Part shown: positions 1 through 50,135 of the stretch, in pieces
Layout: each line of letters starts with the position of its first letter
Numbering within the stretch: position 1 is the stretch's first letter
Source: Acytostelium subglobosum
Taxonomy: Eukaryota
Direction: 5' to 3'
DNA length: 64,000 nt
Assembly (NCBI RefSeq): GCF_000787575.1
Contig: NW_012236531.1
Span: 281,054 to 345,053 of the forward strand
Program-made: the position numbers and the translations under genes
Notes under the pieces: generated by a model
Database searches by the model: none
What the model was told of the DNA's origin: nothing
The model's input: only the letters and a program-made list of their open reading frames with translations

Positions 1-513
1 GAGAGGCAAAAAGATTCCATCAAAGACCACAACTTCACCGAAGCATGTTCAATCTCCAACAGAGTGGATGAGATCGTCAACAGGATCACAGGCCACTCAC
101 ACAAGGTGATTGAGATAGAACTTGGCAAGAAACTGATACTATCCAAACAGATAATCAGTAACTCCTTAAACAATCTGAACATTGACTCATTGTTTGCCGA
201 GGACAAGAATATCCTCGAGAGCATTAAACAAGCCACCAAAATAGATAATTCCTGCTCGGCTAAGTTCAAACAACTGGAGGACACCTACATTAGGAAATTG
301 TCAACCAGGGCCGAGTCAATTCAGGAACAGATTGACAACGGACACTCCTTCGATGCCATGATCAAAAAGAACGAGTTAGTAGTAGAGTTCAAACAGATGT
401 CCAAAATCTTCACTTTGCCTACATGTATTATTGACAACCTAAATAGGGACTTGGACAACTCAGTCACAACCCAAGATAATGTTCTCCATAACCAACAGGC
501 ATTGCATGGATGA
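1..513 (+). CDS. 3' portion of a tandem paralog of the giant GTPase/SecA-like protein (5' end lies outside the window). It terminates about 1,070 aa earlier than the full-length copy, so it is a truncated paralog or a pseudogene
   Basis: Frame-1 translation from nt 1 (ERQKDSIKDHNFTEACSISNRVDEIVNRITGHSHKVIEIELGKK...FTLPTCIIDNLNRDLDNSVTTQDN) aligns colinearly, at roughly 45-50% identity, with residues about 990-1160 of the 4273..10983 ORF (NFNEACSYSNRVKEIVNRITGLSNKEMDVELARL...FTLPKYIIDNLKRDIENTVTKQDE). A stop falls at 511-513 with no convincing GT donor nearby. Confidence 0.6.
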   Translation, partial: ERQKDSIKDHNFTEACSISNRVDEIVNRITGHSHKVIEIELGKKLILSKQIISNSLNNLNIDSLFAEDKNILESIKQATKIDNSCSAKFKQLEDTYIRKLSTRAESIQEQIDNGHSFDAMIKKNELVVEFKQMSKIFTLPTCIIDNLNRDLDNSVTTQDNVLHNQQALHG

Positions 514-2890: not shown

Positions 2891-3810
2891 GTAGTAATAG
2901 TGTCGATCAAGAGAACGAGCAACAAGACCTCATCTGATTGATAATGACATTCCTTAGGAGGTGTCTCAAAGTTGATAATGTAACTATGTTGGTAAATTAT
3001 ACAACAAAGAGGCTGCTAACATAAGATTGAGCAGCACAGCATAGCGCGATATAGGCAACTAGACATGTTTGGAGTGAGTCCTGGCCCTGGTGATCGTCAG
3101 CGGACTCGGAACATATGAATGATATCACCTTCAATCATCTCGTTGGTCACCCTCGATGCATCGAGTCCGCGTGAACATGTTGTATTTGAGGACGAGCATC
3201 AACATCAACACAAAGATTGGTGCTCATCCTCAAAAACAATAGCAATAACGACAACAAATCATCACAAGTAGATAAGAATGATGCATCATTCTTTCCAGGC
3301 TCTACACTGATGTCTTCATACTGCCCCTTCTCAGTGGCCATTGACTGTTGAACACGAGCGATTGTTAACAGCAACAACAGTGTCAACAGCAACAACATTG
3401 TCAACAGCAACTCCAGAAGCAGGATGACTAACAATGACAAAGGCGATCTGGACCTCAACAGCTCCATCTGTTGTTAATGCACATCAAATATATCATCAGA
3501 GCAATTGATGGACCAATGATCCATCCTAGTCTAGATTACTTTTTAGATGTTGGTGAGCATCCATCTGTTTGATCTTTACTTGTTTGAAAGTATCTGTTTG
3601 ACCATAAAGAGTAGACTGGTTTGGTGTGAGTCTTGGATGTGAGCTGGTTTGGTTTGATTTGGGCATCACCCTTTAGCTGAAGGATAGCACCCACTTGTAT
3701 ACTTATTACTTATATTCTTATACATCAATCAATTATTCAATCAACTAATCATCTATTTACTTATATATCTTGGTGCAGTACCAAGAGATGACGATAAAGA
3801 CCACAATGGT

Positions 3811-3928
3811 ATGTTCATTCAACCTGAGAGCTCCCGTGCACCTAATACTAACAATCACCAACTTATAATATTACTACCACTACTAAACTTCACAGGATAT
3901 AATGTTGGGACCCGACCCTGTTCCAATC

Positions 3929-3978
<50 letters not shown>

Positions 3979-3995
3979 CTTAAATGTGACAGATG
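3811..3995 (+). CDS. possible 5' exon (poly-Q) of the giant gene, ending in a GTAAGT donor; weak
   Basis: ORF MFIQPESSRAPNTNNHQLII...NQQQQQQQQQQQQQQQQQLKCDRW is followed directly by gtaagtag at 3996. Acceptor-like cag/aag sites occur at about 4058-4060. No clean in-frame join to 4141 can be made. Confidence 0.2.
3929..3978 (+). repeat. (CAA)n microsatellite, about 17 units (poly-Gln in the + frame)
   Basis: caacaacaacaacaacaac... read directly from the sequence. Confidence 0.85.
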
Positions 3996-4140
3996 GTAAG
4001 TAGTTATTCACTTTGTTCTATGAAGCCAAGAATAACTTTCTAACAAACATAAACTCTCAAGATACACCGACGCCGACACCTACACTGACACAAGCCAAAA
4101 GAATCACCAAGACCATGTTAATGGATGAGAAGCTCAACGT

Positions 4141-7100
4141 GTCATCGAGCTTGCTTGCAAGGGACGAGAAGTAGCTCGGTTAACTGTTGGCAAGGATATC
4201 ATCTACGTCGTCGGACTGTCAGGATCTGGAAAGACAACTCTATGCTACTATTTGACTGGCCACAAAATTTAATTGGTAAAGATCGAGATACCGCTCTTAG
4301 CTAAAGGTATGCCTACTGGAATGAAAACCACTACTGTTGATGTAGATGGTCTAGCCAAGTCCAATATTGGTGGCCAGAAATGGTCCATGACCAAATTCAA
4401 TACCCTGTACAGTATCAAGGATGTACACATCGCAGACACCCCCGGCACCAATGACACCGAGGGAGAGGCAGTTGATCTCGCTAGCTCTGTTTCAACTACC
4501 AACGGCATCCAAGCCTCCAAGTCCGTGCGACTAGTGCTCGTCCTCTCACGACATGACATTGATGGCAACAAAGGAAAGGAGTTCAGCGATCTCCTCGAAT
4601 ATGTGGCCAACATGGTTCGAAACCTGGCCACCAACATTCAATCAATAACTGTTGTCTTCACCAGGATGGATGCTAATCAATCTCTGAGCACACAACATGG
4701 CGAGATCCTGAGATGCATTATCGACCAACTCAACTTTGAGCAGGACATGGATTCCTCCAGTTTGAGAATGACTCTGATCGAACAGATATTCAAGGGTGCC
4801 CAAGCCAAATACAATCAAGTAGAGAACAATATCCATAGTCCTGATTCCAACATCATCCATATCGCCAACCCTCTGGACCCCAACGACCGTGACAATCTCC
4901 TGTCAATCATCATGTCCAAGCCGCCAATCACCGACCCTCAGGTGGTGTTTAAGTACAACATCTCGACTGCCTCCCAGAACTACATTGAGAGTGTCGTATA
5001 CAAGATTGAGAACACTATCAAGGATGCCATCGTCTTCAAGGACTATGAGGCATTGAGGGAGGCCCTTGAGGTCCTAGGCCTGCTCAACACCAATCTTGGA
5101 CTCAACATACTTGATACCTCATACCGTTCATCATTCTCAGATATCACAAGACACCACAGCCAGCTCGTACAATCCACAAAGGACAGTCTGACTGAGAGTC
5201 TCAGGCTGGGTGGCATCTTCAATCCATTGTCACTCAAGTCACTCACTGACAACATCATGAACATCATGATCCAAGTGGGTGAGCATTTGACCAACGTTGA
5301 GACCCACGAACAAGTGTTGGACTCTTTGGTTCAGATTGCCACCGAATGTCAGCTCTCATTGAAGGACATCAACGAGTATGGATCAATCAAATCTCAGTTG
5401 GGCAAGCTTGAACAACTCTCTCTTCTTGGCGCATGCTTCCATCCAGTGTTTGATCAAGCCAAACAAACAATCTCCGAGCGTGTCAGGTTACTGTTTGATG
5501 AGTTCAACACCTGTCTTGACAACTTCAAATGGGAGGACATTGCCTCCGTCCTGACTGCCATTCAAAACACAATGGTAGTCCAAGTCTACATCAACAACTT
5601 TGACATCAACGAGCTGTATCAGTTGGCAATCCAGAGGATTCAATCTTCGCTCGCCCATCTTCTTGATCGTATCACCAAGACCATCAATGGTGATATGCCC
5701 TCAACAATCGATATTGAGAGCATCCACCGCCAATGGACACTTTTGGTTGAGGCATCATCATGCTCTAGACTTGGAGAACACCTTGGCATATCCGTAGAAT
5801 CAACATACATCGATCCTGCCATTTCCTTGATCTCAAAGTATGTTTTAGACATGCTGAACAATCTTGAGAACAGGAACATCGACTCGGTCAGGCTGTGCTC
5901 ATCCTTCCAGAAGACCTCTACGATCAGATCGTTTGACTCGAGGATCAGAGACATGACGAATCCGGAATACAAGGAGGCGCTGAGGATTGTTGATAAAAAG
6001 ATGGATGACTTGCTCAGTGTCTTAAGACAAACAGTTGATAAGGACAACGCCCGTGCACTGACGACCGTCTCCTCTCAGCTCCGAGAGATCAACAGGTACT
6101 CGCAGTTGGATCAGTTCCTATCTGAACCCAGATGTTTGCCAACCTACTTGGACTCACTGGACGTTGTGCTTAATCAAGTGCTGGATTTGGGTATGACCAT
6201 TTGCGAAGCCATCCAGGGCTCTGACTTTAAGACGGCTTCCTCACGAATCAAGAACCTGTGCATCTTGGTCGATGAACTTGGATTCAGTGAGTCATCTAAA
6301 CTCACAGAGGAGCGCGCCCTGCTCGAGAAGATCGCCAACACCAAAGCCAAGATCAATGAGTTCTTTAGCCAAGCATGCACTGTTGACCAGGTAGCCATGT
6401 CGGACTCAATCAAGAATGGAAGGTGGGCAAGGTTCAAGCGAGAGTTTGAGAAGTTGAATCACTTCAGGACATGCCCACTCTTTCCATTTGTATCCACTAC
6501 CCTGTCAGCGATCGAGAAGGAACTCAAAGACACATTTGATGAATGGGTCACCATCATTAAGACCAAGCTGGCCGAGGACAAATATGAGGAGGCATCTGAA
6601 CTTGCCAACCGTATCAATAATGCAAAGAACATCGAAACCATCTCCACCATCATTGGCGACGACTACTTCATGGAATTGAGCGATCATATTAACAAGACCA
6701 TCGACAACTTCATCAAAAAGATGCGCAACCACCTGTCCGACAACAACCTCATGGAGTTTGCCACCCAAAGACAATCGCTCAATGACCTCCTCAGTCTTCC
6801 AAATACAAAGGTGGAACTCCACAAGGTGATCAGTGGGCTCCACATTGAATTCAAATCGAGCCAAGACTCCAATGTTGGCAGCGTTGTTGAATTCCTTAAA
6901 TCTCGCGACTACGACAACATCAAGAGCAATGTGGTCAGCTTCACTCCAGGCTCCGTTGTTCACACAGATATCATGTCCAAGACAATTGCCGTCTTGAGCA
7001 CTGAGGAGAAGAACCTACTCATGAAGGCCAACAGTCTGGACATGGCCGTCCCTCAAGACAACGATATTACACAGTATATCACAATGTCATTGGATCTCTC

Positions 7101-10100
7101 ATCATTCTACAATGCTGCCATATTGGCTGATGATCTACTCTCGGGCACCAACAGATATGACATCATATCCAAGATCAAGGGCATCCAGGACACCCTTTGC
7201 AGGAGCATTCAATCATTGTGTGAGAAACAGAGAGTTGCGATCAATATCCATAACTTCAACGAGGCATGTTCATATTCCAATCGAGTCAAGGAGATAGTCA
7301 ACAGGATAACCGGCCTGTCAAACAAGGAGATGGACGTTGAATTGGCAAGACTCCTGGAAATATCAAAATCAATGATCACAGACGCCCTCAACAACCTGGA
7401 TGATTCATTGTTTAAACTGCCCTCTTACAGTTACAAGAGTATCCTTGAGGCACTCAAGCAAGCAACTGGCACAGATTTGTCTTGCTCCACCAAGTTCACC
7501 CAGCTGCAGGGCGCCTACATTGAGATACTCTGTGCCAAGGTAGAGCCAATTCACCAAGATATTGTCAATGGAGACTGCAACTCTGCCAAGATCAAGGTTG
7601 AGAGCATAGAGGCAGAATTCACCGATATGTCCAGATTGTTCACTTTGCCCAAGTATATCATTGACAACCTCAAGAGGGACATTGAGAACACCGTCACCAA
7701 ACAAGATGAGACTCTCAAGAGCTGTATTGCCGACGGCAACTTTGATAGGTTGGCCAACAACAATCTAAGTCAGCCCACCATTGTCGCCATCCGCTCAACA
7801 ATCTCAGAGAACTTCATGACACTGCAGAGTGCTGTCCATGAGAAGCATTATGGCATAGTTGCCAAACAACTCAGTTGGTTCAATGGCCTTACCAAGAACA
7901 ATGCCATCATGACCATGATTGGATCAACAGCCACGCCAGACCTGAAGACATTGGTTGACATAGCGTCAAAATTGTTTGAGGAGATTGATGACAGCATCAG
8001 GCAGAATGCGCCAAGCACCGATCACTTGGAACACTTCACTGGCTTGTATCTTCACCTGTCGCCATTTATCTCTGACCTGAACATTATCAACAATTCGTTG
8101 GTAAAATGTTTGTACAACTACATTGGCACAATCAACAAGATCATTCAAGACACCACCACCAGAATGAGCAAGGATATCCTTACCAAGGAGACAAGTCAAT
8201 GGGAGATTGTGGCAACAACACTATACACACTCAAACAGTACCCTGGCTTCTTCAACATCACACGAACAATGTTGCTCAAGTCCAACCTGTCACCTGTGCA
8301 AATGCCTCCAACCTACAATGACACTCACTCCAAGCTTCAGACGGTCCTTCAGTTCCGTATCAAGAGCTTCTCCGATGACATTGCCAGACATCAATACGAG
8401 AGATGTGCATCAACAATGATATTAACACGAGACCTCACCTACATACTCAACTCCCTACCCTTGGTCACAGAGGAGAGCATTGTAACTTTATCAAAACTCA
8501 TCGAAGACCACTCCAAGCATCTTGTCGCCTCCAGCAAGGTACAGTGGGACATCCAATCGTTCACCAACTTTGGAAAGCTGCTTGACCAGGCCACTCTGTT
8601 TGAGAAGCACATGTCCACAGTCCCACAGGTCACACTTGCACCATATGGATCAATCATTGCAGTTGTCAGGAGTTCAATTGGAGAGATGGTGATGATGTCA
8701 CAACATCTAAGCACCACTGATCTTCCAATGAAGTTGAGGGAGATCAAAATCCTTTCAGATGAGGCTCCATACGGATCTATTAAAGAGATCGTTGATGAAT
8801 CCATACACGCAATCATTCTCCACCATAAGAAGAACCATGGACATGACTCAATCAATTATATCGGGCTTGCTCTAACCAGACTTGGTCGGTTGGGCAAGGA
8901 GATTGTAGACGAGTCTCCTCACTTCAAGTCTCTCAAGAACGCCATGTGGAACAAGAAGACATCCACTCTCTCACTCGACGACACCCTTGCTGACTTTGAG
9001 GGCACCGACATCAACAAACACCTCCTCAAGACGAGCTACCAGTCCTTTGAGAGGCTATACAATAGGCTGACTGAGGAAGGATTGAGATCTGATCAATCCA
9101 TTGAAGTTGAAGTCAGTAAGATCATCCAGAATGCCAAGGTGATTGCCTCCTCTATCTCACCCAACATGAGAGTCGAGAATGGTGGAAAGTTTATCAAACT
9201 ATTGGCTCACATCTTTGCAGTGTGGACGTTGGCCAAGTCCGGCGCTCGATTCATGGAGGCTGGAGATGTGAATGAGCTGTTGAAGCCACACACCATCCAA
9301 GTTCTCAGCATCATACGACTGCTGGGTATTGACAACGAGAAAGGCTGGTTTACATCGACTGTAAACTCATTTATTGGAATGTCGAGTCCATTCATCAATC
9401 ACCTCATTGAGATCAAGACTGGCGAAGGCAAGTCCGTCACACTGGCCATCCTCTCACTTCTGATTGCGCTTCTTGGGTTCGACGTCAAGTGTGTCAGCTA
9501 CAGCAGTTACTTGTCCAATCGCGACTACAACGACTTTATGGATGTCTTCGTCCTGTTTGGCTGCCAAGATAACATCTCGTATTCGACCATTGGCCAACTT
9601 TGTGAAGTTTTGATCAAAGAGAATGGAGATGTGCGCGATCTTACAGAGTCATTCATCAAGAACAAACTTGTTAAACAATCACCAAAGCCATCGCCCAGTC
9701 CCCGAATCTTGCTCGTTGATGAAGTGGACATTTTCTTTGGAGATTCATTCATTGGTCACACATACAATCCATCCATCACACTCAAGTCGCCAGCCATCAC
9801 TGCTCTCTTCAGGTACATCTATAAAAACCGTGCCTCCATAACCTTGGCTGCGCTGGTCAAACAGCCAGAATACACCAAAGTAGTTGGTGAGTTCCTTGGA
9901 CACGGACCCATAATCACCTACTCGATCAAACAAATGATAGAGTGCGTGTCCCTCTTCAATCATCCAGCATACGAGGTCGACAGAGTCAATCAACGAATAG
10001 GATACCGCAAACATGATGAGATCTCCTACATCACCGAGTACACCCACCGAACAATGTTTGCCTACCTTGCCGAGAATGAGAAGAATGTGATCACTGACAA

Positions 10101-10983
10101 GACCATTGACAAGACCATTGGCATGAGTGTTGTTTGTGGACATTTCAGCTACTCCAAGATCCCAGGCAAGTTCGCAAACATTCTTGGTGTCACTGGCACT
10201 TTGAAGAGTCTCTCACAGCCAGTCAAAAACATCATAGAGGGTTTTAACATCAAGAAGAGCACCTACACACCATCCATCTTTGGAAAAACCCAACTGCATC
10301 ACAAGGAGATTGCGGATGTCATCATGGAGGACACTGTCGTGTTATGGCATCGCAAGATTCAAGACAGCATCTTGGCCGTCATCAAGGCCGACAGAGCCGC
10401 CATTGTCTTCTTTGAGAATGAGCAACTGTTGACAGCGTTCCAACAATCAGAATATTGCAAAGGATTCGACAACATGGCCATACTTGTGGAAGGTTCAGAT
10501 AAGAAGGATAACATCATCAAGAAGGCTGCCACAGCTGGTCGTGTCACCTTGGCCACGAGCTCATTCGGCAGAGGTGTGGACTATTATGTCCGCGATGACA
10601 AAGTGATTGAAGCTGGTGGAGTCCATGTGGTGCAGACCTTCCTGTCAGAGGACATCACCGAGGAGATCCAAATCAAAGGACGAGCTGCACGCCAAGGTCA
10701 GAATGGATCATACCAGTTGATCATGTGCAAGTCACATCTGATCAATATGGGCATCAACGAGACGGAGCTCACGACCAACTATAAGAGTAATTCATTCTAC
10801 CTCTTCGTCAACAAGGCTAGACAAGGCATCCATGATGCTAAATGCACCAAGCAGGTTGCCAATGCCAGAATTGCTGACGAGCAGGATGAGCAATCCGTCG
10901 AGTATCTAAAGGGACTATTGAGTTACGATCCAGAGAACAAACACGAGCTGTCCCAAAAATTGGAAGGAATAATAAAGGCATGA
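4141..10983 (+). CDS. giant (~2,280 aa) multidomain NTPase: N-terminal septin/AIG1/Toc-type GTPase domain, a ~1,500-aa alpha-helical middle region, and a C-terminal SecA-like DEAD motor ATPase (NBD1, PPXD-like insert, NBD2). The main ORF 4273..10983 has no introns
   Basis: GTPase motifs: G1 P-loop YVVGLSGSGKTTL at 4207-4245, same frame as the main ORF but separated from it by an in-frame TAA at 4270-4272; G2 region MKTTTVDVDG; G3 DTPG (ORF residues 55-58); G4 TRMD (about residue 130). SecA-like block at ORF residues ~1680-2180 compared with E. coli SecA: PHTIQVL / PHSVQLI; IEIKTGEGKSVTLAILSLLIALLGFDVKCVSYSSYLSNRDYNDF / [56 protein letters not shown] / YALVDEVDSILIDEA; EYTHRTMF / DEHTGRTMQG; FANILGVTGTL / YEKLAGMTGTA; GRVTLATSSFGRGVDY / AAVTIATNMAGRGTDI; VIEAGGVHVVQTF...QIKGRAARQGQNGSYQLIM / [42 protein letters not shown]. 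An upstream ATG at 4115 (MLMDEKLNV) is in a different frame, so the 5' structure is unresolved. Confidence 0.8.
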
Positions 10984-11458: not shown

Positions 11459-13532
11459 ATGAATTACAAGTACTTTGGACTATTCCTTTTGTTGGTACTC
11501 TGCCTTGAGATGGTTGTCCAAGTAAGTACTTTTTTTATACTAAATATTAATAATCCTTTCCAATCATTTATTCATTCAAAAGACTCATGCTGCAGTAGCT
11601 ACAAAGCCAAAAAAAGAAAGACTTGGCACCAACCAAGCCCAAGAGATTGGTCAACGCGCAGATCGAGAAGATCAATTGGCACAAGATGATGATGGTGTAC
11701 ACTGAGACTTTGATCAACAAAAAGACATACTTTGTGAAGCCGGAACAGCCACTCCAGTTTATGGAGATGTTGAAGGCCTACGTGATAACCGGAGTATCGT
11801 TCATCCCAGAAGTTGGTCCTGCCCTCAGTGGTATGATCGATACGATCTGGTCCGGCTTTATCGAGAACACTCCCATCAATGACTTCAACGAAGACTGGTA
11901 CCTGGCAGGCATCAGGGATGTGGTAGGCGACGAGTTGATCAAGTTTGATATTAGTAACTCCCTCGCGACGCTTCAGGGGCTGGTCAGACACTCCCAGGAC
12001 TTTCACACTTACGTCAATGAATCAAAGTACAACAGCTCCCAGGGTGTTCATGACATGATCAAGTCCTTCTACTTTTCTCTCGACAGTGGTCTGCGTGACC
12101 ATCTGGCTGGAGATTTCAATCGCCCAGGTTATGAACTAGGCGAGCTGCCCAGCTATGCCATCGCCGCCACCATCTACTTCATGCTCCAGGTCGAGTTCAA
12201 CAGACATGCAACGGAGTGGGGCTATGAAGAGAACGTCATCTGCATCCAGCGCCAAATCGCGTTTAATGTAATGCCCATCTACACGAATAACTGCATGGCC
12301 ATCTTCCAATCCACGCTCGCCAAGATTGTCGCCACCGAAGACACTGATGAACCAATCTCTGGGAGGAACACGTTTGAGAAGATTTTGGCGCTACGACGTA
12401 TCTTGATCCTGGCAGTGTTTGACTATGTCGGCATGTGGTGGCAGATGGACTCGGTCATGTTCCCCATGGGTGTATATGCTGAGAGGGTGCGCAAGGTGTG
12501 GGGGCCGACCTTGGGCTATGCCCGAGATATCGACGCAGTCCACGACCCCAATCAACTTGACCCAACCTACTTTGATAGGTTCACTGGCCCGGACATCACC
12601 TATGCTCGATACATGGAGATGTACGACGAGAAAGGAATTGAGCAAGTCAATGGCCTTATCTCTGCCGCTCCAGGACCGACCATTTCATCACCGGCCTCAC
12701 GGCGAAATACAGACACCCTGACAACATCATCTATGCAACCGAATGGAGCCGGAATGACAAACCACCTGCTGACTATGATGGCTACTTTATCTATTTCCCC
12801 AAGACCTTCAGGGACTCCAAGCTGACAATGATAGGCACATCCGTCCCCAAGTACATCAGCAACGACAATCCCGAGAACTCATTCCTTTTGTTTGTCGACG
12901 CCTACTCAGACGATATGGAGAATTGCATCGATCCTCAAGTCGGATGCTCTACAACGCCAGAGGAGAGGTACAATAACTTTAAGGTGCCATTCCACAAGGT
13001 CGGTGACATTGTGGCCTGGGACTCGAACAATGTGATCAATTTGAAGTACGAAGTCACCGACGCCCTCATGGTTGGCTTTGTGCCAACCAATGTGTTCCAC
13101 AGCAACACGGTGTTCAGGCACACCACCACTGCCATTGACGCCCAGAAGTTCACTGTAAAGCAGGGAGGAAGCATCTTTGTCCGCGACCACTTCACCATTG
13201 GCTCGCATGCCTTGATGATCCCAACTGGCAACGTCCTCTCGTACAACTTCATCGCCCAGGACAACAAGGGTAGCGATCACTACCTTGGTATTCTGGCCTG
13301 TCTGAAGACCGCTGGAGCTCCGGTGACTGTCACCATCACTCACTCGATACTCGGCAAGGTGTGCGACATTGTGATTGGCAGTACTGACTACCATCCCATT
13401 CTGGACATCAACCAAAACCTCGTGAGGCTGACCAGTGCTGGATTGAACGCTCAGAGTCCAAAGCTTGTCATTTCTGCAACTGGTGACTTCTATCTCAAGT
13501 CAATCATCTTTGTTCCATGGTTTAGTCCTTAA
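11459..13532 (+). pseudogene. Cry-like three-domain delta-endotoxin homolog, copy 1, with two frame-disrupting differences (probable pseudogene, or two sequencing errors)
   Basis: Exon 1 at 11459..11521 encodes the signal peptide MNYKYFGLFLLLVLCLEMVVQ. The GTAAGT intron spans 11522..11582 and exon 2 starts at 11583. An A7 homopolymer at ~11609-11616 carries +1 nt relative to paralogs (removing one A restores ...TKPKKKDLAPTKPKRLVNAQIEK...). A 7-nt deletion near 12668 (paralogs gcagctcacttcgccatgaccgac; here gccgctccaggaccgac) splits the ORF into 11623..12825 and 12828..13532. The rest is colinear with the intact copies, including block-1-like LPSYAIAATIYFMLQVEFNRHATEWGY and the C-terminal YLKSIIFVP. 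Confidence 0.6.
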
Positions 13533-14503: not shown

Positions 14504-16531
14504 TTACTTTGGCACCAGGATGATAGATGTCAGACGCACATTGCTTCCAACTGCGGTGAATGTGAACAGGTTGTTGTCATGGTTGGGAGACAGGACAATG
14601 TCATAGTCAGGCGTGGTCTCAACGATTGAGTTCTTGTTCAAGAAGGGAAGAGTGAATGTTGCAACATCGACACCGTTCTTGGACACCTTGACACTGAGTG
14701 GCACCTTGGAGCCTGTGTACACGCGAAGATACAGGTCGTAGGCAATGTCGACCGCGTTGACAGAGTCGAAACGATATGTGATCGAGCCACCAACTGGGAT
14801 GAACATCGAGTGCAGGCCTGGGCCAAACGTCTCGGGCTCAAAGTAGGCGCCGCCATCGATGGACTGGTACTTCTGAGCGTCAATGACAGTGGTGGTCGCG
14901 CGCAAGATAACATTGTTGGCAAACACGTTGGAGGGGATCAGACCCACGGTGATAGCGTCGAGCGCCGGGTGGAGGGTAGTCCTCTCGTTGGTACCCCATC
15001 CAAAGGCGGTGCCAATCTTGTGGTCTGGGACAGCGATGTTGTCGGTGATACGCTGGCCGATCTCGCCGTAGAATGTTTGGCAGTACTCGTCGTTGGAAAG
15101 ACATCCGCGGTCCAGGGCAAGTCCGCCGACGCCGGGGAAGACGAGTCGGCGAGGAAGATGGTCATGGTGGAAGCTTGCGTTCTGGGTGACGGATGTGGGT
15201 GGGAACTTGAAGTTCTTGTTCTTGGTCACACCTGGTTCAGCGACGAGCGTTCCAACTTCGGCGCCCTTGCGAGTGCTGGCGGGGGTTGCAGGACGGCTGG
15301 TCGTGTAGGTTGGTTGGGCGCTGTAGATGATCTCGTCGGGCTTGTGAACAATGAGGAAACTGGTCATCTCTCCCTTGTAGTCCTCCTGTTTGAGTCCCCA
15401 CCACATCTCGGTCAGACGCTCGAATGATGGACTGACGTAGTCGGAGATGTTCTCAGAGCTGATCATGTCTGGGTCGACACTGTAGCCAATGGTCTTGGAG
15501 AAGAGGTAGCGCACACGCTCTGCATGGAAGCCGTGGAGGCCAGCGATCTTGGGGTCGAGGTTGTACCACATGGCGACAAAGTCAGACACCTGGGTGATCA
15601 CGATCCGACGCAGATCCTGGAAGTTGTCAAATCGGCCAGAGCCGTCAAAGTTACCCAAGTTGGTCATTGGTGTATTGGCTTCATCGAATACGTCTCTGGC
15701 GTAGTGTGAGTAGTCGTCGATGACCTCGTAGTAAGTATCGCGGTATGTGGTCACATTCTGGGTGGAGAAGCCCCAGGTCTCACCCCAGCGCACAAGGTCG
15801 GTCAGGAGGAGCACGTGAGAGGTGGCGGCCAGGGAGAAGATGGTGAGCTGATCGAGGGGATGTCTGCGGAACTCCCCGCCGTCCGCAAGCACAGTGGTCA
15901 GCAGGCTCTCTAGTTTATCAATGGCAACTCTAAGGTAGAGAGCTGTGGTAGGATTACTGGGTGCAGCAGTGAAGGCGGTGAGCGAGTTGGTGTAGTCCTT
16001 TGCGGCAATTTGGATAAACTGGTAGTATACTGGATCTACTCTATCTGCGCTGTCCTCGTTGTAGAGGATAGAATTAGGGTCGACGGAGGCCTGGACGATT
16101 GCAGAGTAGAGGCCAGTGACCTTGGCGTCGCCCGTAGTGTAAGGTGTCTCGTTCTCCACCACGTAGCTCCAGATAGAAGTGATAAAGCTGGATGTGGCTA
16201 TGAATGGTGAGTAGCCAGCGGTGTTGAGCGCGTTGATCACCTTGCTAACGTGAGCATAGAATGATGGACCAAAATCGGTAAACAACGGGAAGGAGTAGTC
16301 GTCCAGTGGCGACGTGAACCTTCCAACAAAGGCAGTGTTCTCAGTGAGCCATCCAACTTTGTTAAAGGCTGCGTCCTAAGATGTGCCATTGTATATCAAG
16401 TGATTGGAATTTGAGAGTTAGTGAGTGATCAGGGTTGGCAGACATAGAGTTAGCTAAATACAAACAGACTTGTCAACAGTGATCATAATCATGGACACCA
16501 AGATGGCACCCAATATTATATGTTTGAACAT
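14504..16531 (-). CDS. Cry-like three-domain delta-endotoxin homolog, copy 2 (divergent subfamily, inverted orientation), about 646 aa, predicted secreted
   Basis: Exon 1 at ~16466..16531 encodes MFKHIILGAILVSMIMITVDKS (signal peptide) with a GTTTGT donor. The intron spans ~16379..16465 and ends in an acceptor reading ...cttag on the minus strand (plus-strand 16376..16378 = cta). Exon 2 runs 14504..16378 and begins DAAFNKVGWLTENTAF.... Block-1-like: HPLDQLTIFSLAATSHVLLLTDLVRWGETWGFSTQNVTTYRDTYYEVIDDYSHYARDVF, compared with Cry1A [55 protein letters not shown]. Block-2-like: DLRRIVITQVSDFVAMWYNLDP compared with [21 protein letters not shown]. The C-terminus ends ...VRLTSIILVPK. Confidence 0.8.
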
Positions 16532-17224: not shown

Positions 17225-19337
17225 ATGAATTACAAGTACTTGGGACTAGTCCTGGTGCTTCTCATGTCCCTTGAGATTGTTGTTCAGGTATGTACTTATA
17301 CTTTAAAAGACTGACCATGGTCAATCTTTGATCTAATTATTAACCCTATTCATTCATTCTTTCATTCCAAAGACTCATGCTGCAGTGGTAACCCCAAGAA
17401 AGAAAGACACCGCCTCCACCAAGCCCAAGCCCAAGAGATTGGTCAACGCTCAGATCGAGAAGATCAATTGGCAGAAGTTGATGTTGGTGAACACAGACTT
17501 GTTGATCAACAAAAAGACATACTTTGTGAAGCCGGATCAGCCATTCCAGTTCATGGAATTCCTGAAAGCCTACGTAGTTACCGGAGTATCGTTCATACCA
17601 GAAGTTGGCCCAGCCCTCAGTGGTGTCATCGACAGTGTGTGGTCTGGCTATATCGAGAACACCCAGAGCAATGACTTTAACGAGGATTGGTACCTGGCCG
17701 GCATCCGCGAGGTAGTTGGTGACGAGCTGGTCAAGTATGACATTACCAACACTGTCGCGACCCTCAGAAGTATTGCCAAGCTCACCAAGGACTTTCACAA
17801 ATATGTCAATGAGACCAAGTACCACAACACCGACAGCGTTCGTGAGTCTGTAAGGAACTACTACCATACACTCGCAAGTGGTCTGCGTGATCATATGGAA
17901 GGAGATTTCGCCCGCCCAGGCTACGAACTTGGCGAACTGCCCAGCTATGCCATCGCCGCCACCGTCTACTTCATGCTCCAGGTCGAGTTCAACAGGCATG
18001 CATTGGAATGGGGATTTGACGAGAACGTTATCCGCATCGAGAACGAATTGTCAATGGAGGCAAGGTCCAATTACACCACCCACTGCATCACGACCTTCGA
18101 GAACACGCTCGCCAAGATTGTTGCTGCTGAAGATGATGGCGAGCCAATCTTTGGAAGGAACCAGTTCGAGAAGATGCTGGCGCTGCGCCGCATCTTGATC
18201 CCGGCAGTGTTTGACTATGTTGGCATGTGGTGGCAAATGGACTCGACCATGTTCCCCATGGGTGTATATGCTGAGAGGGTGCGCAAGGTGTGGGCACCGA
18301 CTTTGGGATATGCCCGAGATCCTGACGTAGGATATAACGATGATCAATTCGAGAATCGGTACTCAGGCCCGGGAGTCTCCTATGCTCGCTACATGGAACT
18401 GTACGACCAGAAAGGAATTGAAGAGTACAAAGGCCTAATCAAGGTCGCTCATTTCGCCGTGAACGACAACTTCATCACAGGCTTACGCAAGAGCTATTTA
18501 TCCCCCACCAATGATGCTTATTCAACTCCTTGGAGCCACAATGACAATCCACCCGCGGATGATAGGGGCTACGTCGTCAACTTCCCCAGGACCTTCAAGG
18601 AAGCCCAGCTGACATTGATTGGCGATTCCATCCCCAGGTACATCAGGTCCTTTGATCCTCAGAACCTATTCTTTTTGTTACTCGATGGCGAAACTGAAGA
18701 ATCGAGGAAGAATTGCTTCAAATCCTCCTATCTCAACAATGTAGCCCCAATTATATGCCCAACATCGGCAGAGGAGAGGTATGAAGACTTTTCTGTGCCG
18801 CTCCACAAGGTCGGTGACATCATTGCCTGGGACCAGAACGTGGTGATCAATCAGGAGTACGACGTCACCGACGCCATAATGATTGGCCTTGTGCCAACCG
18901 ACGTCTTCCACAGCAACACTGTCTTCAGGACTACCGCCACGGCCATCGACGCCCAGAAGTACTCTGGAAAGCATGCAGGAAGCACCTTTGTTCGCGACCA
19001 CTTCACAATTGGCTCGCATGCCATGTTGATCCCAACTGGAAGCAGCCTCAAGTACCACTTTATCGCCCAGGACAACGCCGGTAGCAATCACTACCTTGGT
19101 ATTCTGGCCTGTCTGCAGAATGCTGGAGCTCCAGTGACGGTCACCATCACCCACTCGAAACTCGGCAAGGTGTGCGACATTGTGATCAGCAGTACCGACT
19201 ACGCTCCACTTCTGGACGCCAACAAAAGCCTCTTGAGGCTGAATAGTGCTGGATTGAGCGCTCAGAGTCCAACACTTACTATCTCGGCCACTGGCAACTT
19301 CTACCTCAAGTCAATCATCTTTGTTCCAAGACCTTAA
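17225..19337 (+). CDS. Cry-like three-domain delta-endotoxin homolog, copy 3, intact, about 675 aa, secreted
   Basis: Exon 1 at 17225..17287 encodes MNYKYLGLVLVLLMSLEIVVQ. The GTATGT intron spans 17288..17372 with acceptor ccaaag, and exon 2 runs 17373..19337 as an open frame (THAAVVTPRKKDTASTKPKPKRLVNAQIEKINWQK...). Block-1-like LPSYAIAATVYFMLQVEFNRHALEWGF, block-2-like LALRRILIPAVFDYVGMWWQMD, C-terminal block-5-like NFYLKSIIFVPRP. Confidence 0.85.
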
Positions 19338-22340: not shown

Positions 22341-24443
22341 AATGAGTAACAAGAATTTGGGACTATTCCTGATGCTGATAATGTGCCTTGAGCAGGTTGC
22401 CCATGTATGGGCATAACAAAATACATTCATCATCAATCAATCATTGTAAATATTAACAATAACCTCCATAAATTGTGATTCATTCTTTTCTTCTTTCCAA
22501 AGACTCAAGCTGTAGTTATAGCCAAACTAACGACCAGCCCTTCAACGATTCCCAAGCCCAAGCCCAAGAGAGTGGTCAACGCGCAGATCGAGAAGATCAA
22601 TTGGCAGAAGATGATGATGGTCAACACAGAGACATTGATCGAGAAAAAGACATACTTTGTGAAACCGGATCAGCCAGCCCAGTTCATGGAATTCATCAAG
22701 GCCTATGTGATTACCGGAGTATCGTTCATCCCAGAAGTTGGCCCTGCCCTCAGTGGTGCCATCGACTCAATCTGGTCTGGCTTTCTGGAGAACACCAATG
22801 ACAATGACTTCAACGAGGATTGGTACCTGGCCGGCATCCGTGACGTGGTTGGCGACGAGTTGATCAAGTTTGACATCACTGACACGATCTCCAAGCTACA
22901 AGGTTTTGGAGAACTGACCAAGAACTTTCACACATATGTCAATGAGTCAAAGTACCACAACACCGCGAGTGTTCGAAAGCAGATCCAAACCTACTACAAT
23001 GCCCTCGACATCGGTCTGCGTCTACATCTGAACGGAGACTTCAAGCGCCCTGGATTCGAACTTGGCGAGCTGCCCAGCTATGCCGTCGCTGCCACTGTCT
23101 ACTTCATGCTCCAGGTCGAGTTCAACAGACATGCATTGGCATGGGGCTTTGACGAGAATGTCATCCGCATCCAGAGAGGCTTCGCCTTGGATGCTCTACA
23201 AAATTACACCTCCCACTGTCGTACAACCTTTGACAACACGATCGCCAAGATTGCCGCTGCTGAGGACCCCTATGATCCAATCTCTGGAAGGAACACGTTC
23301 GAGAGAATGCTGGCTGTGCGCCGAATCTTGATCCCAGCCGTGTTTGACTACGTCGGAATGTGGTGGCAAATGGACGCTATTATGTTCCCCAAGGGTGTAT
23401 ATGCTGAGAGGGTGCGCAAGGTGTGGGCACCAACCATTGGCTATGCCCGAGACCCTGACGCCCTTAGTACCCCAAACAACGTGAATATGTTCACCGGCCC
23501 TGGAGTCTCATACAGTCGCTACATGTATTTCTATGACCTGAGAGCAATTGAGCAGGTCAAAGGGCTTATCTCCGTTGCACACTTCTCCTTGAACGACATG
23601 TACATCACTGGTCTTCGCAAAACCTATAGGGGCTCCAACATGGACTACTCAACTGGTTGGAGCCGATGTGACACACTTCCTGGGGACGACCTGGTCCGTG
23701 GCTATGTCATCAACTTCCCCAAGACTTTCAAGGAAGCTAAGCTGACTTTGATTGGCGACTCGGTACCCAAGTATATCAGGTCCATCGATCCCGATAACCA
23801 ATACTTTGTCTTGGTCGATGGCGAGTTCACTGAAGAGTATTGCAACCAAGCTGAGTACTCTTGCACGCCAACGCCAGAGGAGAAGTATGAAGACTTCATT
23901 GTGCCGCTCCACAAAGTCGGTGACATGATTGCATGGGACCAGAACAGTTTGATCAATTATAGGTACGATGTAACCGACGCCATCATGGTTGGCCTTGTGC
24001 CAACCGACCTGTTCCACAGCAACACTGTGTTCAGGCACACCACCACGGCCATCGACGCTCAGAAGTTCTCTGGAAAGGAGGAAGGAAGCATCTTTGCCCG
24101 CGACCACTTCACTATTGGCTCTCATGCCATGATGATCCCAATTGGACATAGTCTCAAGTACCATTTTATCGCGCAGGACAACAAAGGTAGTGATCACTAC
24201 GTGGGAATTATGGCATGTTTGAAGACCGCTGGAGCTCCAGTGACAGTCACCATCACACACTCGGTACTCGGCAAGTTGTGTGATATCGTGATCAGTAGTA
24301 CCGACTACCATCCCATTATGGATGCCACCCAGAGCCTGGTGAGGCTGACCAGTCCAAGGGCGACCTCCAAAAGTCCTTATTATTCCATTTCCGGAACAGG
24401 TGACTTCTACCTCAAGTCAATTATTTTAGTTCCAAGACCTTAA
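22341..24443 (+). CDS. Cry-like three-domain delta-endotoxin homolog, copy 5, intact, about 667 aa, secreted
   Basis: Exon 1 at 22341..22403 encodes MSNKNLGLFLMLIMCLEQVAH. The GTATGG intron spans 22404..22502 with acceptor ccaaag, and exon 2 runs 22503..24443 as an open frame (TQAVVIAKLTTSPSTIPKPKPKRVVNAQIEK...). Same conserved blocks, ending ...DFYLKSIILVPRP. Confidence 0.85.
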
Positions 24444-49100: not shown

Positions 49101-50135
49101 GTTCGAGTCCTTGTTGTGGCTGTTGCGATCGTCAATCTCAATGCTGCCCGACTTGTCGATGGGGATCATCTCGATGTTGCCACCACCACGCTCAGCCATG
49201 TCGAGCTTCTCGTCGTCGGACAGATTGGTGCCGGGGTCTGATGCCAGCACGATCATGTGTTCGCTGGACTTGGACTTGGACATGTCGTCCTCGAGTAAGT
49301 CAGCCTTCTTGCGCAGACGCAGAGCCTTGTCGCCGTCCTTGACCACCTCCTCCATGAACAGGGCAAAGTCACGGATGACACGCACCGAGTTGGGGTTGAG
49401 TGCCAGGAGACGTTCGTATAACTCGATGGCCTTGGTCTCCTTGCGCGCAATCCTTCCCGACAGCTCGTTGAGGCGCTGTAGGTCGATGGTCTCGTGAAGC
49501 AGCTGGCGCCAGAAGCGGTTGATGTAGTGCAGGCAGGAGTTGTGCGACTTGCGTGCCGCGATGTACAGCTTCTTGAACTCCATGTACGACACAAAGTCCT
49601 GGATTTTGCCGCCCTCTGGTCCCTTGAGGTCTGAGTCCATCATCTGTTGGCGGTCCTTGTCGTGGCGGTAGATGAAGAAGCGCACGTCCAAAGGTGGTTG
49701 CATGCGTCTCAGCTTCTCCAGTGCGGCGTAGCCCACATGTATGTTGCGACGTACGGTGAACAGGTAGTTGGCGTAGGCCATCCACAGCAGCTCCGAGTTG
49801 GGATAGTACTGCAGGCCGGCCTGGTACAGGAAGTTGACACGCTCGATGGCCTGGCCGTCGACGCTGTCGTGCAGGATCTTGCGAGACATGATCTCGACAA
49901 AGTAGGCAAAGGCGAATCTGCGCTTGAAGAATGGGAACTCGATGTTCTTCTTGGAGCCCAGTGTGTTGTCAACTGCTTCGAACTTTACAACGCGTACACC
50001 ATCCACACCATCATTGATCTGCAAGCCTTGATCACTCGATTGCTTTGGCAATTGTATATTTGTAAGATGTTCAGCCTGTGATGTTATGTACTTATAGAAT
50101 CGTCCTAGAGTGTAGTGTAATGTTATGTTAGTCAC
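46137..50135 (-). CDS. very large type-I/III membrane protein (1,332+ aa): N-terminal TPR/HAT-like cytosolic region, a TM segment, a mucin-like poly-Thr/Gly ectodomain, and a C-terminal multi-TM region
   Basis: Single minus-strand ORF. N-terminal helical repeats (ELLWMAYANYLF...), a TM helix INALSWIMIATTVVTIIFSIICLALL, about 250 aa of T/G/A low complexity ((ACN)n at 47900-48800), GGGW repeats, and further TM helices near the C-terminus. Family not recognised. Confidence 0.7.
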   Translation of the reverse strand: MTNITLHYTLGRFYKYITSQAEHLTNIQLPKQSSDQGLQINDGVDGVRVVKFEAVDNTLGSKKNIEFPFFKRRFAFAYFVEIMSRKILHDSVDGQAIERVNFLYQAGLQYYPNSELLWMAYANYLFTVRRNIHVGYAALEKLRRMQPPLDVRFFIYRHDKDRQQMMDSDLKGPEGGKIQDFVSYMEFKKLYIAARKSHNSCLHYINRFWRQLLHETIDLQRLNELSGRIARKETKAIELYERLLALNPNSVRVIRDFALFMEEVVKDGDKALRLRKKADLLEDDMSKSKSSEHMIVLASDPGTNLSDDEKLDMAERGGGNIEMIPIDKSGSIEIDDRNSHNKDSNSESNSSSALKRARYQAFQHSNAINALSWIMIATTVVTIIFSIICLALLRTQMVNQRNAFQDILSAGEAAIEANRIAQNFNNMQQYALTYLFNATDNGNRSSTTGGGGWTAGGTTTAGTTTAGTTTTTTTGTGVTTTTASTTAATTTTTTTGATTTTAATTGTTTTTTPTTTTTPTTTTTTTSTTDPTTTTTTTPTTDPTTTSTTTATLGWTPSGNSTTTGATTTTTGAATAATTSTATTTATTTVTTTATTTATTTASTTGGVTGAATTASTTGAASTTGRTSGGGGGGGSGGGRDGGRSGWGPGGFIVQNITVEEAFGNFSYYYNRSIRSLNVLENIHHAIYWGEQSANPYVSDSMAQLKRLYGLPNIYDIGSEVFDYSQFNKTRPATEPLLSAIYNEPSVVMSIFLTIPGQGNNWGGRGSGGWNGGGGWNGGGGGGQWNGTRNGTADNYINFRNSSTNQTYNAWKAGNLFVESGRAMMAGNNISMFGSTAYSNPLFRFVSDNGPRSLTRAYFDIQMAYSQTVMDRANQISFSIVYSWLALFVVLLLCAVLAFRPVVSRISREKIRILVLFTLAPKEVLEKMAAQRHRLVSVDSESDRELMSDKEDDVVAAVPHTPVETTPKLSSAREDMQSSSSLMRPSYDSYGKNGILVEQLKRDSLHLDRSAGDMRPLIGASGLSAVHIHEDATAANVAAANANASPLAKADLPRGGRGELTLFGAWDGKSKRNVNKRGIRSVLRRQHIYYSVALIILFAVITIGLYISFYEIYADYGSGVQVAMNSKRATYARILNTLVSRIMSPELTNDGTTGWMTNITMEMQYNHNMLTDIPQTRALMDGSYGCWLIDQSKCRNESDPYYDDVAHGLDWLVNEFIEHSLNLIYTQRSLIIANNTDVQWMKSVGQTDILDGLDRASFLYFQYWQDIQEYAITIITLVMSLVCVVMFFMYLFVFRPFINRLRVQHIHTMAMLRMAPEDIQRMEIDEKQLNED

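Follow-up and report, generated by a model that had tools for sequence, protein, structure and literature searches.

What is a SecA-like ATPase doing at the end of a giant protein of Acytostelium subglobosum, and is it joined there to a GTPase? In the textbooks SecA is the motor that drives protein export in bacteria, and we know of no function for it away from a membrane channel. The window, a stretch of 64,000 nucleotides, contains the large open reading frame reported in the first-pass annotation; it is a nuclear gene of A. subglobosum and matches SAMD00019534_001220 of strain LB1 with 100% identity on a 1.84-Mb contig. The reading frame opens with TTG and runs for 2,236 codons with no internal TAA, TAG or TGA before terminating at a TGA (Table 1), and stop-codon reassignment was rejected on this basis. 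In the annotation, protein P0001 begins with the Met codon at position 4321. No transmembrane segment or targeting signal was seen in P0001; a membrane-like hydrophobic window at residues 1702-1710 was rejected as the buried helix that follows Walker A, and Pfam matches to Hfq, TetR_C, HMD_N and RXLR_WY were rejected as sub-threshold noise. Rfam and tRNA scans of the window returned no matches. Four Cry-toxin-like genes lie directly downstream of the locus.

Table 1. Features of the locus, in coordinates of the window.
Feature	Position	Strand	Basis and content
Third paralogue, truncated fragment	1..510	+	tblastn and translation; 52% identical to P0001 residues 968-1132
Putative exon 1	3788..3808	+	MTIKTTM with start codon; aligns to P0002 N-terminus (MTVKTT..); GTATGT follows; inferred
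Putative intron 1, 87 nt	3809..3895	+	GT..AG, TACTAAC-like branch site; read from sequence
Putative exon 2	3896..3995	+	DIMLGPDPVPIN(N)n..NVTD, AAC-repeat poly-Asn tract; matches P0002 residues 12-36
Putative intron 2, 66 nt	3996..4061	+	GTAAGT..AG; read from sequence
Exon 3, 5' part	4062..4272	+	Frameshift, G1 loop, TAA; three-frame translation, tblastn against P0002 and P0125
Main ORF	4273..10983	+	2,236 codons from TTG; stop TGA at 10981-10983
TRAFAC G-domain remnant without P-loop	4321..4959	+	phmmer with paralogue G domain, family alignment, paralogue AlphaFold model
Middle region, ~1,390 aa	4960..9129	+	phmmer coverage along P0002; no known domain
SecA-derived ATPase module, 617 aa	9130..10980	+	Sequence/profile matches; AlphaFold pLDDT 89.6; hhalign probability 99.6%
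PHTIQV	9286-9303	+	First SecA-type motif of the series
NBD1, first part	9400..9739	+	Walker A KTGEGKS 9415-9435, YLSNRD, Walker B LLVDEVD 9709-9729
SSYLSNRD	9502-9525	+	SecA-type motif in NBD1
~140-aa insertion at SecA PPXD position	9742..10162	+	hhalign collinearity; includes YTHRTM 10039-10056
Rest of NBD1 and NBD2	10165..10732	+	Motif III GVTGT 10186-10200; motif V FGRGVD 10564-10581
Motif VI / arginine finger	10669-10710	+	QIKGRAARQGQNGS; sequence
C-terminal helix, 42 aa	10795..10920	+	Model helix 556-597

The 5' end of the gene departs in two respects from the first-pass annotation, which had called the gene intron-less and had placed the G1 loop GLSGSGKTT inside the reading frame. The N-terminus of P0002, the intact neighbouring paralogue (79% identical to P0001), aligns to three exons separated by two GT-AG introns. 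Removal of the first intron joins MTIKTTM to DIMLGPDPVP and splicing of the second restores D-DTPTPTPT, in both cases as in P0002. The G1, or Walker A, loop is found at 4213-4239, outside the main ORF. A 1-nt frameshift at ~4136-4138, where a base is missing relative to P0002 between MDEKL and RVIELA, lies upstream of it, and an in-frame TAA at 4270-4272 separates it from the ORF, while the annotated start of P0001 is downstream of both lesions. The homologues P0002 and P0125 read straight through both positions. Loss of the TAA by splicing of a short intron, GC-AG or 25 nt long, was rejected, as no GT is found upstream of the stop and the two homologues align straight through it. As assembled, this copy has lost its reading-frame connection to the P-loop through the frameshift and the TAA. 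Judged from its sequence, the gene would either be in early decay or specify a protein shortened at its N-terminus, in which the G domain is dead and the motor intact. The third paralogue of the cluster ends at a stop codon with no SecA-like part after it, and of the three linked copies one is intact, one has 5' lesions and one is truncated.

It is possible, if doubtful, that both lesions are sequencing or assembly errors and that the gene encodes a full-length protein of ~2,350 aa with a working P-loop, like its paralogue. The missing base falls in a short A run (ctcAAcgt against a K codon in the paralogue), identity to the paralogue is 67% in one frame on both sides of the TAA, and the remnant of the G domain shares 68-81% identity with the paralogue, which falls within the 64-96% of the remainder of the protein. 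However, the two lesions are independent and less than 140 nt apart, the TAA is a substitution rather than a homopolymer-length error, the deposited annotation begins downstream of both, and the truncated third copy next door indicates that decay does happen in this cluster. We consider it unlikely that the whole locus is a pseudogene from which no functional protein is made. Although the frameshift and nonsense codon take away the start region and the P-loop, and the adjoining paralogue fragment is truncated, 2,236 open codons are impossible by chance at 45% GC, identity to the paralogue is 93-96% over the last 200 residues, none of the ATPase motifs is damaged, and Met codons in frame follow shortly after the TAA.

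The fold of the N-terminal domain is that of a TRAFAC G domain. Across the family and in P0002, G1 GxxxxGK[ST], the switch-I Thr, G3 DxxG and G4 [NT]KxD appear in order on a Ras-like fold, and the AlphaFold model of the paralogue's G domain has a pLDDT of 86. The window gene retains G2 to G4 within the ORF, as a switch-I-like SMTKF (4384-4398), G3 DTPG (4435-4446) and G4 FTRMD (4657-4671), at invariant columns of the family G-domain alignment A2, and the paralogue G domain matches the remnant at 2e-98 by phmmer. The proposal of a septin/AIG1-type GTPase is partly confirmed, by the fold, G3 and G4. Pfam AIG1 (PF04548) matches neither the window protein nor P0002, with 6 of 23 other family G domains matching (best 3.8e-8), and Septin (PF00735) has no match in the Acytostelium proteins and reaches 0.004 in 2 of 23 family members. 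GIMAP, Toc and EngB are near-equal top matches of the fold, and Foldseek returned E ~1e-5 alike for IRG, FeoB and GIMAP7. A PDB profile search with the G domain gave mostly Walker-A-only matches (midasin, ABC proteins), and a homologue search with the G-domain profile returned only fragments of the same family and no informative outgroup. Since the G4 aspartate varies across family G domains, some members may lack GTP specificity.

Between the G domain and the motor lies a middle region in which a Pfam scan found no significant match. Based on phmmer coverage along P0002, it varies in sequence and, apart from ~100 aa at its beginning and ~150 aa at its end, is conserved in dictyostelids alone. 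The linker of P0001 measures 1,397 aa, compared with mostly 1,400-1,900 aa in the family (full range 365-1,920 aa).

In the last ~530 residues the motifs of the SecA DEAD motor follow one another in canonical order, as the first-pass annotation had claimed, although two of the motifs had been slightly misquoted (YTHRTM as HTGRTM, and SSYLSNRD as NDYL..RD). Pfam SecA_DEAD matches at E=3.2e-9 with 36.9 bits against a cutoff of 24.6, and P-loop_SecA reaches 25.6 bits, just below its cutoff of 27. In a PDB sequence search, all 22 significant matches were SecA or SecA2 (best E=4e-10), with P0001 residues 1708-2151 aligned to SecA residues 81-526, and hhalign of the family profile against canonical SecA gave E=6e-24. 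The ~140-aa insertion is collinear in hhalign with SecA residues ~217-345; in the control SecA P0037, SecA_PP_bind covers residues 231-339. The expected Pfam matches were only partly recovered in P0001, with SecA_DEAD present and SecA_PP_bind (PF01043) joining AIG1 and Septin among those absent; PF01043 was also absent from the listed family members. Neither SecA_SW (PF07516) nor SEC-C (PF02810) matches P0001, and SEC-C is present in P0037. The protein ends ~85 aa past NBD2, where the AlphaFold model has one long and one short helix. The long helix is probably the first helix of the SecA helical scaffold domain: a global hhalign puts FYLFVNKARQ on SecA's YDDVMNxQR, a weak correspondence in an alignment that was forced to be global.

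Because the best sequence, profile and fold matches are all SecA or SecA2, the C-terminal module is taken to be SecA-derived and not a generic SF2 helicase; its specific derivation from SecA is confirmed far beyond chance, and the refuting result named in the first-pass annotation, a best hit to an ordinary SF2 helicase, did not occur. An ordinary SF2 helicase or translocase engaged in RNA/DNA sensing or remodelling, rather than in acting on polypeptides, is an improbable account of how the module works. Far less credible is a canonical or organellar SecA/SecA2 subunit working with a SecY-type channel. Its appeal comes from those same best matches and from the UniProt name of the Heterostelium homologue, "Protein translocase subunit SecA", but P0001 has no SecA_SW, SEC-C or PP_bind match in Pfam, the NCBIfam SecA/SecA2 equivalogs score 18-53 bits against cutoffs of 725-1,085, the family forms a separate long-branch clade (bootstrap 100%), the module forms the C-terminal end of a protein of 2,200 aa, and Amoebozoa have, to our knowledge, no plastid. 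With the wing/scaffold and SEC-C missing and the NCBIfam scores so far under their cutoffs, the protein, as read from its sequence, is not a SecA orthologue.

A word-indexed search with the full protein returned only 4 matches, and profile and exhaustive searches were needed to recover the family. At E<=1e-30 the SecA-like module family comprises 1,098 clusters (50% identity). In the profile search, family members score 169-525 bits, after which the scores fall to 113 bits (P0035) and to at most 90 bits (canonical SecA). We define the family here as an N-terminal G domain (profile A2) followed by the C-terminal module (profile A1) in one polypeptide, ~1,400-1,900 aa apart; P0001 fits this definition with its G-domain remnant (2e-98), its module (1,086 bits) and its linker. 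The layout occurs in the same order in 82 proteins examined, mostly with that spacing, and the proposed two-NTPase architecture is real and conserved. We found no paper describing or characterising it, in line with the novelty ascribed to the fusion, which is nevertheless not a one-off, given the ~1,100 clusters and its presence in intracellular bacteria. That the family consists of giant soluble proteins with a G domain, a variable linker and a SecA-derived ATPase is a conclusion in which we have high confidence.

Among eukaryotes, the two-domain protein is found in dictyostelids and Thecamoeba, and the SecA-like module in Polarella, Amphora and Culex. Bacterial two-domain giants occur in Legionellales, Parachlamydiaceae/Chlamydiae and gammaproteobacterial MAGs (including 2.9- and 3.8-Mb contigs), with two-domain ORFs at loci L002, L003, L005, L007, L010, L018 and L019. 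Wolbachia has the module without the N-terminal G domain in the members examined. Many relatives carry an extra divergent vWA-like C-terminal domain, and one bacterial giant, L007, has a U-box at its N-terminus. Only three weak matches (23-28% identity) were found in IMG/VR viral contigs, and those in INPHARED phages and PLSDB plasmids were weak (22-30%) and mostly canonical secA, so these collections give no support for a family in viruses or plasmids. The PADLOC anti-phage models gave no match beyond P-loop-level noise (E ~0.006-0.008).

A neighbour-joining tree of the SecA-like part, the phylogeny that had been suggested as a check, recovers the family as monophyletic and groups the amoebozoan relatives together with a bootstrap of 87%; its backbone bootstraps, at 5-44%, do not show whether the genes passed from bacteria to eukaryotes or the other way. 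That the gene came into the assembly as bacterial contamination, or was inserted from bacteria very recently, has next to no probability in spite of the close relatives in Legionellales and Chlamydiae genomes, since the gene sits among eukaryotic genes (actin, Exo70, Rpb1-type polymerase and ZIP) on its 1.84-Mb contig, has GT-AG introns between its 5' exons, finds its nearest relatives in the well-grouped Amoebozoa and has a GC content like that of the adjacent sequence.

Our current hypothesis for the mechanism is that the PPXD-like insertion and NBD2 together make a clamp, which the motor would drive between open and closed states with ATP. No SecY channel would take part, and the extended substrate gripped by the clamp would most likely be a polypeptide. 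The polypeptide clamp is a tentative proposal. SecA pushes polypeptides with a two-helix finger, which this module lacks, so a translocation cycle like that of SecA should not be taken for granted; against the clamp it also counts that SF2 relatives act on nucleic acids and that the PPXD homology comes from a collinear profile alignment with no Pfam match. The G domain, together with the vWA domain where present, would be a switch, gated by nucleotide, that controls dimerisation or the binding of partners. Because the family is common to Amoebozoa and obligate or facultative intracellular bacteria, the eukaryotic cytosol is the most likely site of action; the U-box of L007, the lack of a transmembrane segment and the domain lists in PMC5062602 and PMC3482391 were also counted towards this. 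The setting would be one of host-symbiont conflict, with an amoebal defence or surveillance protein set against secreted bacterial effectors. Circumstantial evidence favours a role in host-microbe conflict, and we put a cytosolic setting of this kind at about even chances. Three unequal linked copies, the hypervariable middle and the four Cry-toxin-like genes downstream are supporting points for conflict-type evolution. On the bacterial side, candidate secretion of these proteins as effectors is inferred from one U-box fusion and literature statements, and the defence or membrane-remodelling role suggested in the first-pass annotation is speculation.

Conceivably, although we would not lean on it, these proteins represent an undescribed class of cytosolic machine, in which a channel-free SecA-derived clamp motor works under an immunity-type G domain (with vWA or U-box in some), is used by both sides of the amoeba/protist-endosymbiont conflict, and has genes that move repeatedly between the partners and from Wolbachia to mosquito chromosomes. 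Taken as a whole, the explanation covering family, mechanism, setting and the state of this copy is one we consider likely. The analysis defines a family of about a thousand clusters with a stripped-down SecA motor and its fusion to a GTPase within giant soluble proteins. It corrects a misleading database label under which eukaryotic members are named "protein translocase subunit SecA". The family is a new candidate for a part in the innate defence of amoebae or in the effector repertoire of bacteria, and it clearly exemplifies genes shared by hosts and their endosymbionts (Legionellales, Chlamydiae, Wolbachia). Dictyostelids are genetically accessible, and through them the family gives a tractable entry point to the role of a channel-free SecA motor.

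Compared with known systems, the module has the two RecA-like domains of bacterial SecA and SecA2, with TGEGKS, YLxxRD, DEVD, GxTGT, GRGxD and GRxxRQGxxGS, and shares with SecA an insertion at the PPXD site and a long helix after NBD2. Unlike SecA, it is without the wing, the two-helix finger (IRA1), the C-terminal linker and the SEC-C zinc motif, its identity to SecA is ~20%, a PPXD is not recognised in it by Pfam, and it lies C-terminally in a soluble protein of 2,200-3,500 aa that also has a G domain, here encoded by a eukaryotic nuclear gene. The family G domain has the TRAFAC fold and DTPGxxDT-type G3 region of GIMAP/AIG1, Toc34/159 and IRG proteins, and the Acytostelium proteins have a GIMAP-like T(K/R)xD-type G4. 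In contrast to GIMAP/AIG1, the Acytostelium proteins have no AIG1 match, EngB, Era and SRbeta score equally well, there is no evidence of the GIMAP conserved box, and the G4 aspartate of the family is variable.

Three bacterial settings offer further parallels. The eukaryotic association module of phage WO of Wolbachia lists "SecA" as a eukaryotic-like domain (PMC5062602), and the SecA domains of wHa_3920 and wHa_3930 were noted to be closer to eukaryotes than to bacteria, with the domain type just listed and assigned to "secretion" (Bordenstein and Bordenstein 2016, PMC5062602). Wolbachia loci L012 and L015 encode proteins of 1,509-1,515 aa that fall inside the family, and L015 has a second SecA-like giant adjacent, as described for WOHa2; the Wolbachia members examined differ in having no N-terminal G domain, with wHa_3920 compared by description only. 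In Amoebophilus asiaticus, "SecA-like helicase-related" and "GIMAP-type GTPase" domains occur in effectors (Zhang et al. 2012, PMC3482391), where they are listed separately as variable C-terminal effector domains, with no fusion, family or eukaryotic counterpart described (PMC3482391); the same two kinds of domain are reported there in host-directed proteins of an amoeba endosymbiont. Divergent SecA_DEAD domains have also been reported in giant Omnitrophota and Actinobacteria proteins and as "secondary SecA_DEAD proteins" (bioRxiv 10.1101/2023.11.21.568195; PMC4452313), which have in common with the present family a SecA motor without scaffold or wing, in very large proteins or as an extra copy. 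Those proteins differ in their many transmembrane segments, extracellular or carbohydrate-active domains or type I secretion neighbours, and in having kept PP_bind, and they are thought to be self-exporting, whereas the present family is soluble, carries a G domain and is also eukaryotic.

The C-terminal module of the giant protein encoded in the window can be assigned as SecA-derived. In Pfam scans of the deposited protein (P0001), SecA_DEAD scored 36.9 bits (cutoff 24.6, E=3.2e-9) and P-loop_SecA scored 25.6 bits, slightly below its cutoff of 27. All significant PDB sequence matches (22/22) were to SecA or SecA2, with P0001 residues 1708-2151 aligned to SecA 81-526. A local profile-profile comparison of 90 family sequences with 70 canonical SecAs gave a probability of 99.6% (E=6e-24), and the two profiles run collinearly from Walker A to motif VI, including the stretch that holds SecA's preprotein cross-linking domain. 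The last 617 aa, modeled by AlphaFold with 38 family sequences, had a mean pLDDT of 89.6, and all of the ATPase motifs of the P0001 module are intact. The first-pass annotation had read this part as a SecA-like motor and had allowed that an ordinary SF2 helicase might prove the best match; the SecA reading is borne out, with SecA/SecA2 and no such helicase on top.

The giant protein does not qualify as a SecA orthologue. Whereas SecA_SW (scaffold, wing, and two-helix finger), SEC-C, and SecA_PP_bind were all detected by Pfam in a control SecA, none of the three was recognizable by Pfam in P0001. Downstream of NBD2, the AlphaFold model holds one 42-residue helix, which in a forced global alignment maps to the start of the SecA scaffold helix, one short helix, and nothing more. 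The NCBIfam SecA/SecA2 models scored 18-53 bits on P0001 versus cutoffs of 725-1,085, and no transmembrane segments were found in P0001.

The N-terminal domain was analyzed in P0002 (SAMD00019534_001180), an intact paralogue of 2,333 aa from the same genome that is 79% identical to P0001. A model of P0002 residues 36-330, built with 23 family sequences, adopted a Ras-like fold with flanking helices (pLDDT 86), and Foldseek returned IRG proteins, FeoB, GIMAP7, mitofusin, MxA, and Toc34 at E ~1e-5. When single G domains were scanned with Pfam, MMR_HSR1 was matched in 20/23, AIG1 in 6/23 (best 3.8e-8), and Septin in 2/23; the Acytostelium domains matched MMR_HSR1 only, with no AIG1 or Septin match. 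In the family alignment, G1, the switch-I Ser-x-Thr, and DxxG are invariant, a DTPGxxDTxGxExD stretch is conserved, and the G4 aspartate is variable. Based on the fold search, the Pfam matches, and the alignment, we place the domain among TRAFAC G domains near the GIMAP/Toc/Era region, with membership in AIG1 or septin not demonstrable. Thus the GTPase first proposed here holds as a TRAFAC G domain, but its septin/AIG1 subclass is unproven.

The combination of the two domains had been thought to be without a characterized eukaryotic counterpart, and this claim of uniqueness was wrong because the family is large. When 1.84 billion cluster representatives were searched with a profile built from four C-terminal modules, 1,098 clusters matched at E<=1e-30; every one of the best 150 exceeded 467 bits, and many were 2,000-3,400 aa long. 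In a word-indexed profile search, family members scored 169-525 bits, the related protein P0035 scored 113 bits, and canonical SecA reached at most 90 bits. Among the proteins examined, 82 carry a G domain and, C-terminal to it, the SecA-like module, with a linker between them of mostly 1,400-1,900 aa (median 1,592, full range 365-1,920). Conserved sequence comprises the G domain with ~100 aa beyond it and the last ~750 aa; conservation of the middle region is limited to dictyostelids. In many members, the C-terminus is formed by a domain of ~240 aa, which contains a DATGSM motif and bears a weak resemblance to vWA (Pfam VWA E=0.003). The vWA match is significant in a Thecamoeba protein (VWA_2 3.6e-8) and, in precomputed hits, in the family proteins P0013 and P0025. 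The Acytostelium proteins are without this domain, and FNIP repeats replace it in one Synstelium protein. An FNIP-repeat ORF in the window (286 aa, E=1.9e-38) resembles the C-terminal extension of the Synstelium homologue P0125 (tblastn 32-35% identity).

The nearest relatives are found in Synstelium polycarpum, Heterostelium album (PPL_09767, labelled 'Protein translocase subunit SecA' in UniRef), and Thecamoeba quadrilineata, and further eukaryotic matches come from Polarella, Amphora, an MMETSP transcript, and Culex pipiens pallens. When a single genome from each bacterial species was scanned, the family turned up in Legionellales, Parachlamydiaceae/Chlamydiae, Wolbachia of Pentalonia and Tribolium, and several gammaproteobacterial MAGs; contigs of 2.9 and 3.8 Mb carry two of the hits. 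The bacterial side of the distribution is restricted to intracellular lineages. The bacterial ORFs span 1,500-3,550 aa, and both domains are present in those of seven loci (L002, L003, L005, L007, L010, L018, and L019). The 3,050-aa protein of the Pseudomonadota MAG locus L007 (3114-12263, +) carries a U-box E3-ligase domain N-terminal to its G domain (E=8.7e-8); since a U-box is meaningful only in the eukaryotic cytosol, this points to action in the host cell.

A crude neighbor-joining tree (567 columns, 100 bootstraps) recovered the family as monophyletic (100% bootstrap) on a long branch. Its sister clade consists of a 4,445-aa Legionella ORF (L025, 2753-16087, +) and a 3,309-aa Wolbachia ORF (L015, 11873-21799, +) that directly follows a family member, and P0035 forms the next sister branch. 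The sister clade is more SecA-like, scores 64-85 bits against the family profile, and is another uncharacterized lineage of giant SecA-like proteins. Within the family, an Amoebozoa clade has 87% bootstrap. Two chromosomal genes of Culex pipiens pallens (P0024 and P0026, on contigs of 224 and 186 Mb), which carry the annotation 'protein translocase subunit SecA-like', group within the Wolbachia branch with 100% bootstrap, suggesting transfer from Wolbachia to the mosquito. The sister groups of the family appear to be bacterial, and a bacterial origin of the module would be more parsimonious on a tree whose backbone bootstraps are only 5-44%.

The window gene itself belongs to the dictyostelid Acytostelium subglobosum LB1. 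Its main ORF is 100% identical to the hypothetical protein SAMD00019534_001220 (P0001, 2,220 aa), which starts at the Met at 4321. Contamination was ruled out because the contig spans 1.84 Mb, the gene has eukaryotic neighbors (actin, Exo70, an RNA polymerase subunit of the Rpb1 type, and a ZIP transporter), and the GC content is similar to the surroundings. The interval of the first-pass annotation began at 4141 in order to take in the P-loop; the observation was real, but the 5' end was misread, as an in-frame TAA separates the P-loop from the ORF. Alignment of P0002, whose N-terminus (MTVKTT...GRSGSGKTTLCYYLTGHTLKVIKLPL) is unbroken, yielded the 5' gene model below. In putative exon 2, an AAC-repeat tract encodes ~17 consecutive Asn, and the N-rich run of P0002 is shorter and interrupted there.

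Features of the window and their positions
Feature	Position	Strand	Remark
Third paralogue, tail	1-510	+	52% identical to P0001 residues 968-1132
Exon 1, from ATG	3788-3808	+	P0002 alignment
Intron 1 (GT-AG)	3809-3895	+	P0002 alignment
Exon 2	3896-3995	+	P0002 alignment
Intron 2 (GT-AG)	3996-4061	+	P0002 alignment
Exon 3	from 4062	+	P0002 alignment
Absent base	about 4136-4138	+	P0002 alignment
P-loop GLSGSGKTT (G1)	4213-4239	+
In-frame TAA	4270-4272	+	between P-loop and main ORF
Main ORF	4273-10983	+	2,236 codons
Endotoxin_N ORF	11623-12825	+
Endotoxin_N ORF	14504-16285	-
Endotoxin_N ORF	17385-19337	+
Endotoxin_N ORF	22572-24443	+
TPR ORF	46137-50135	-	1,332 aa
FNIP-repeat ORF	53081-53941	-	286 aa

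One base is absent relative to P0002, shifting the frame from ...MDEKL to RVIELA where P0002 reads MDEKIKRVIELA. As assembled, the main ORF is cut off from the start region and from G1 by this frameshift and the TAA, both of which fall inside a 140-nt stretch. An intron removing the TAA was ruled out because GT is absent upstream of the stop, and the alignment of the Synstelium homologue runs uninterrupted across this position. The lesions could be sequencing errors, which is conceivable for the frameshift, located in a short A run; the TAA, however, is a substitution. The G-domain remnant is 68-81% identical to P0002, inside the 64-96% range of the remainder of the protein, so any decay would be recent. 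The genes form a small tandem cluster, in which the window copy is probably the damaged one. The third paralogue is probably a truncated or pseudogenized copy, as its tail ends in a stop codon without any motor domain downstream.

Four ORFs with a delta-endotoxin N-terminal (Cry-toxin pore-forming) domain lie directly downstream of the giant gene (Pfam E 4e-19 to 1.5e-32), and this tandem cluster of toxin-like genes adjoins that of the giant NTPases. In the 1,332-aa ORF, a TmcB-type TPR is the sole recognized domain (E=1.8e-38).

The protein is soluble and has an intact SecA-type ATPase core with an insertion at the clamp position, and the family has a switch-type G domain. In the proposed mechanism, the PPXD-like insertion and NBD2 would make up a clamp that the motor cycles on an extended substrate. 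This substrate would most likely be a polypeptide, with nucleic acid a possible alternative. The SecY channel would not be involved, and the pushing mechanism of SecA cannot simply be assumed because the two-helix finger is absent. The G domain, with the vWA domain where present, may gate the motor or recruit partners. It is established for SecA that the N-terminal fragment of DEAD motor and PPXD acts as a deregulated ATPase when its C-terminal regulatory domain is missing; a role of the large upstream region as a regulator in cis would fit with this. The paralogues are clustered and partly decayed, with a hypervariable middle region, and the family may act in host-symbiont conflict.

We found no paper describing the G domain/SecA-like architecture or testing any member, and the family is uncharacterized and unusual in joining a channel-free SecA motor to a G domain, a fusion common to protists and their intracellular bacteria. 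Related material has been published. SecA is among the phage WO EAM domains, is closer to invertebrates than to bacteria, and occurs there as two adjacent homologues (Bordenstein and Bordenstein 2016, PMC5062602), which the adjacent SecA-like pair in the Wolbachia locus L015 fits. The effector domains of Amoebophilus include 'SecA-like helicase-related' and 'GIMAP-type GTPase' (Zhang et al. 2012, PMC3482391). Divergent forms of SecA_DEAD without scaffold and wing are also present in membrane-anchored giants of Omnitrophota and Actinobacteria (bioRxiv 10.1101/2023.11.21.568195) and in the 'secondary SecA_DEAD proteins' tied to type I secretion (PMC4452313).
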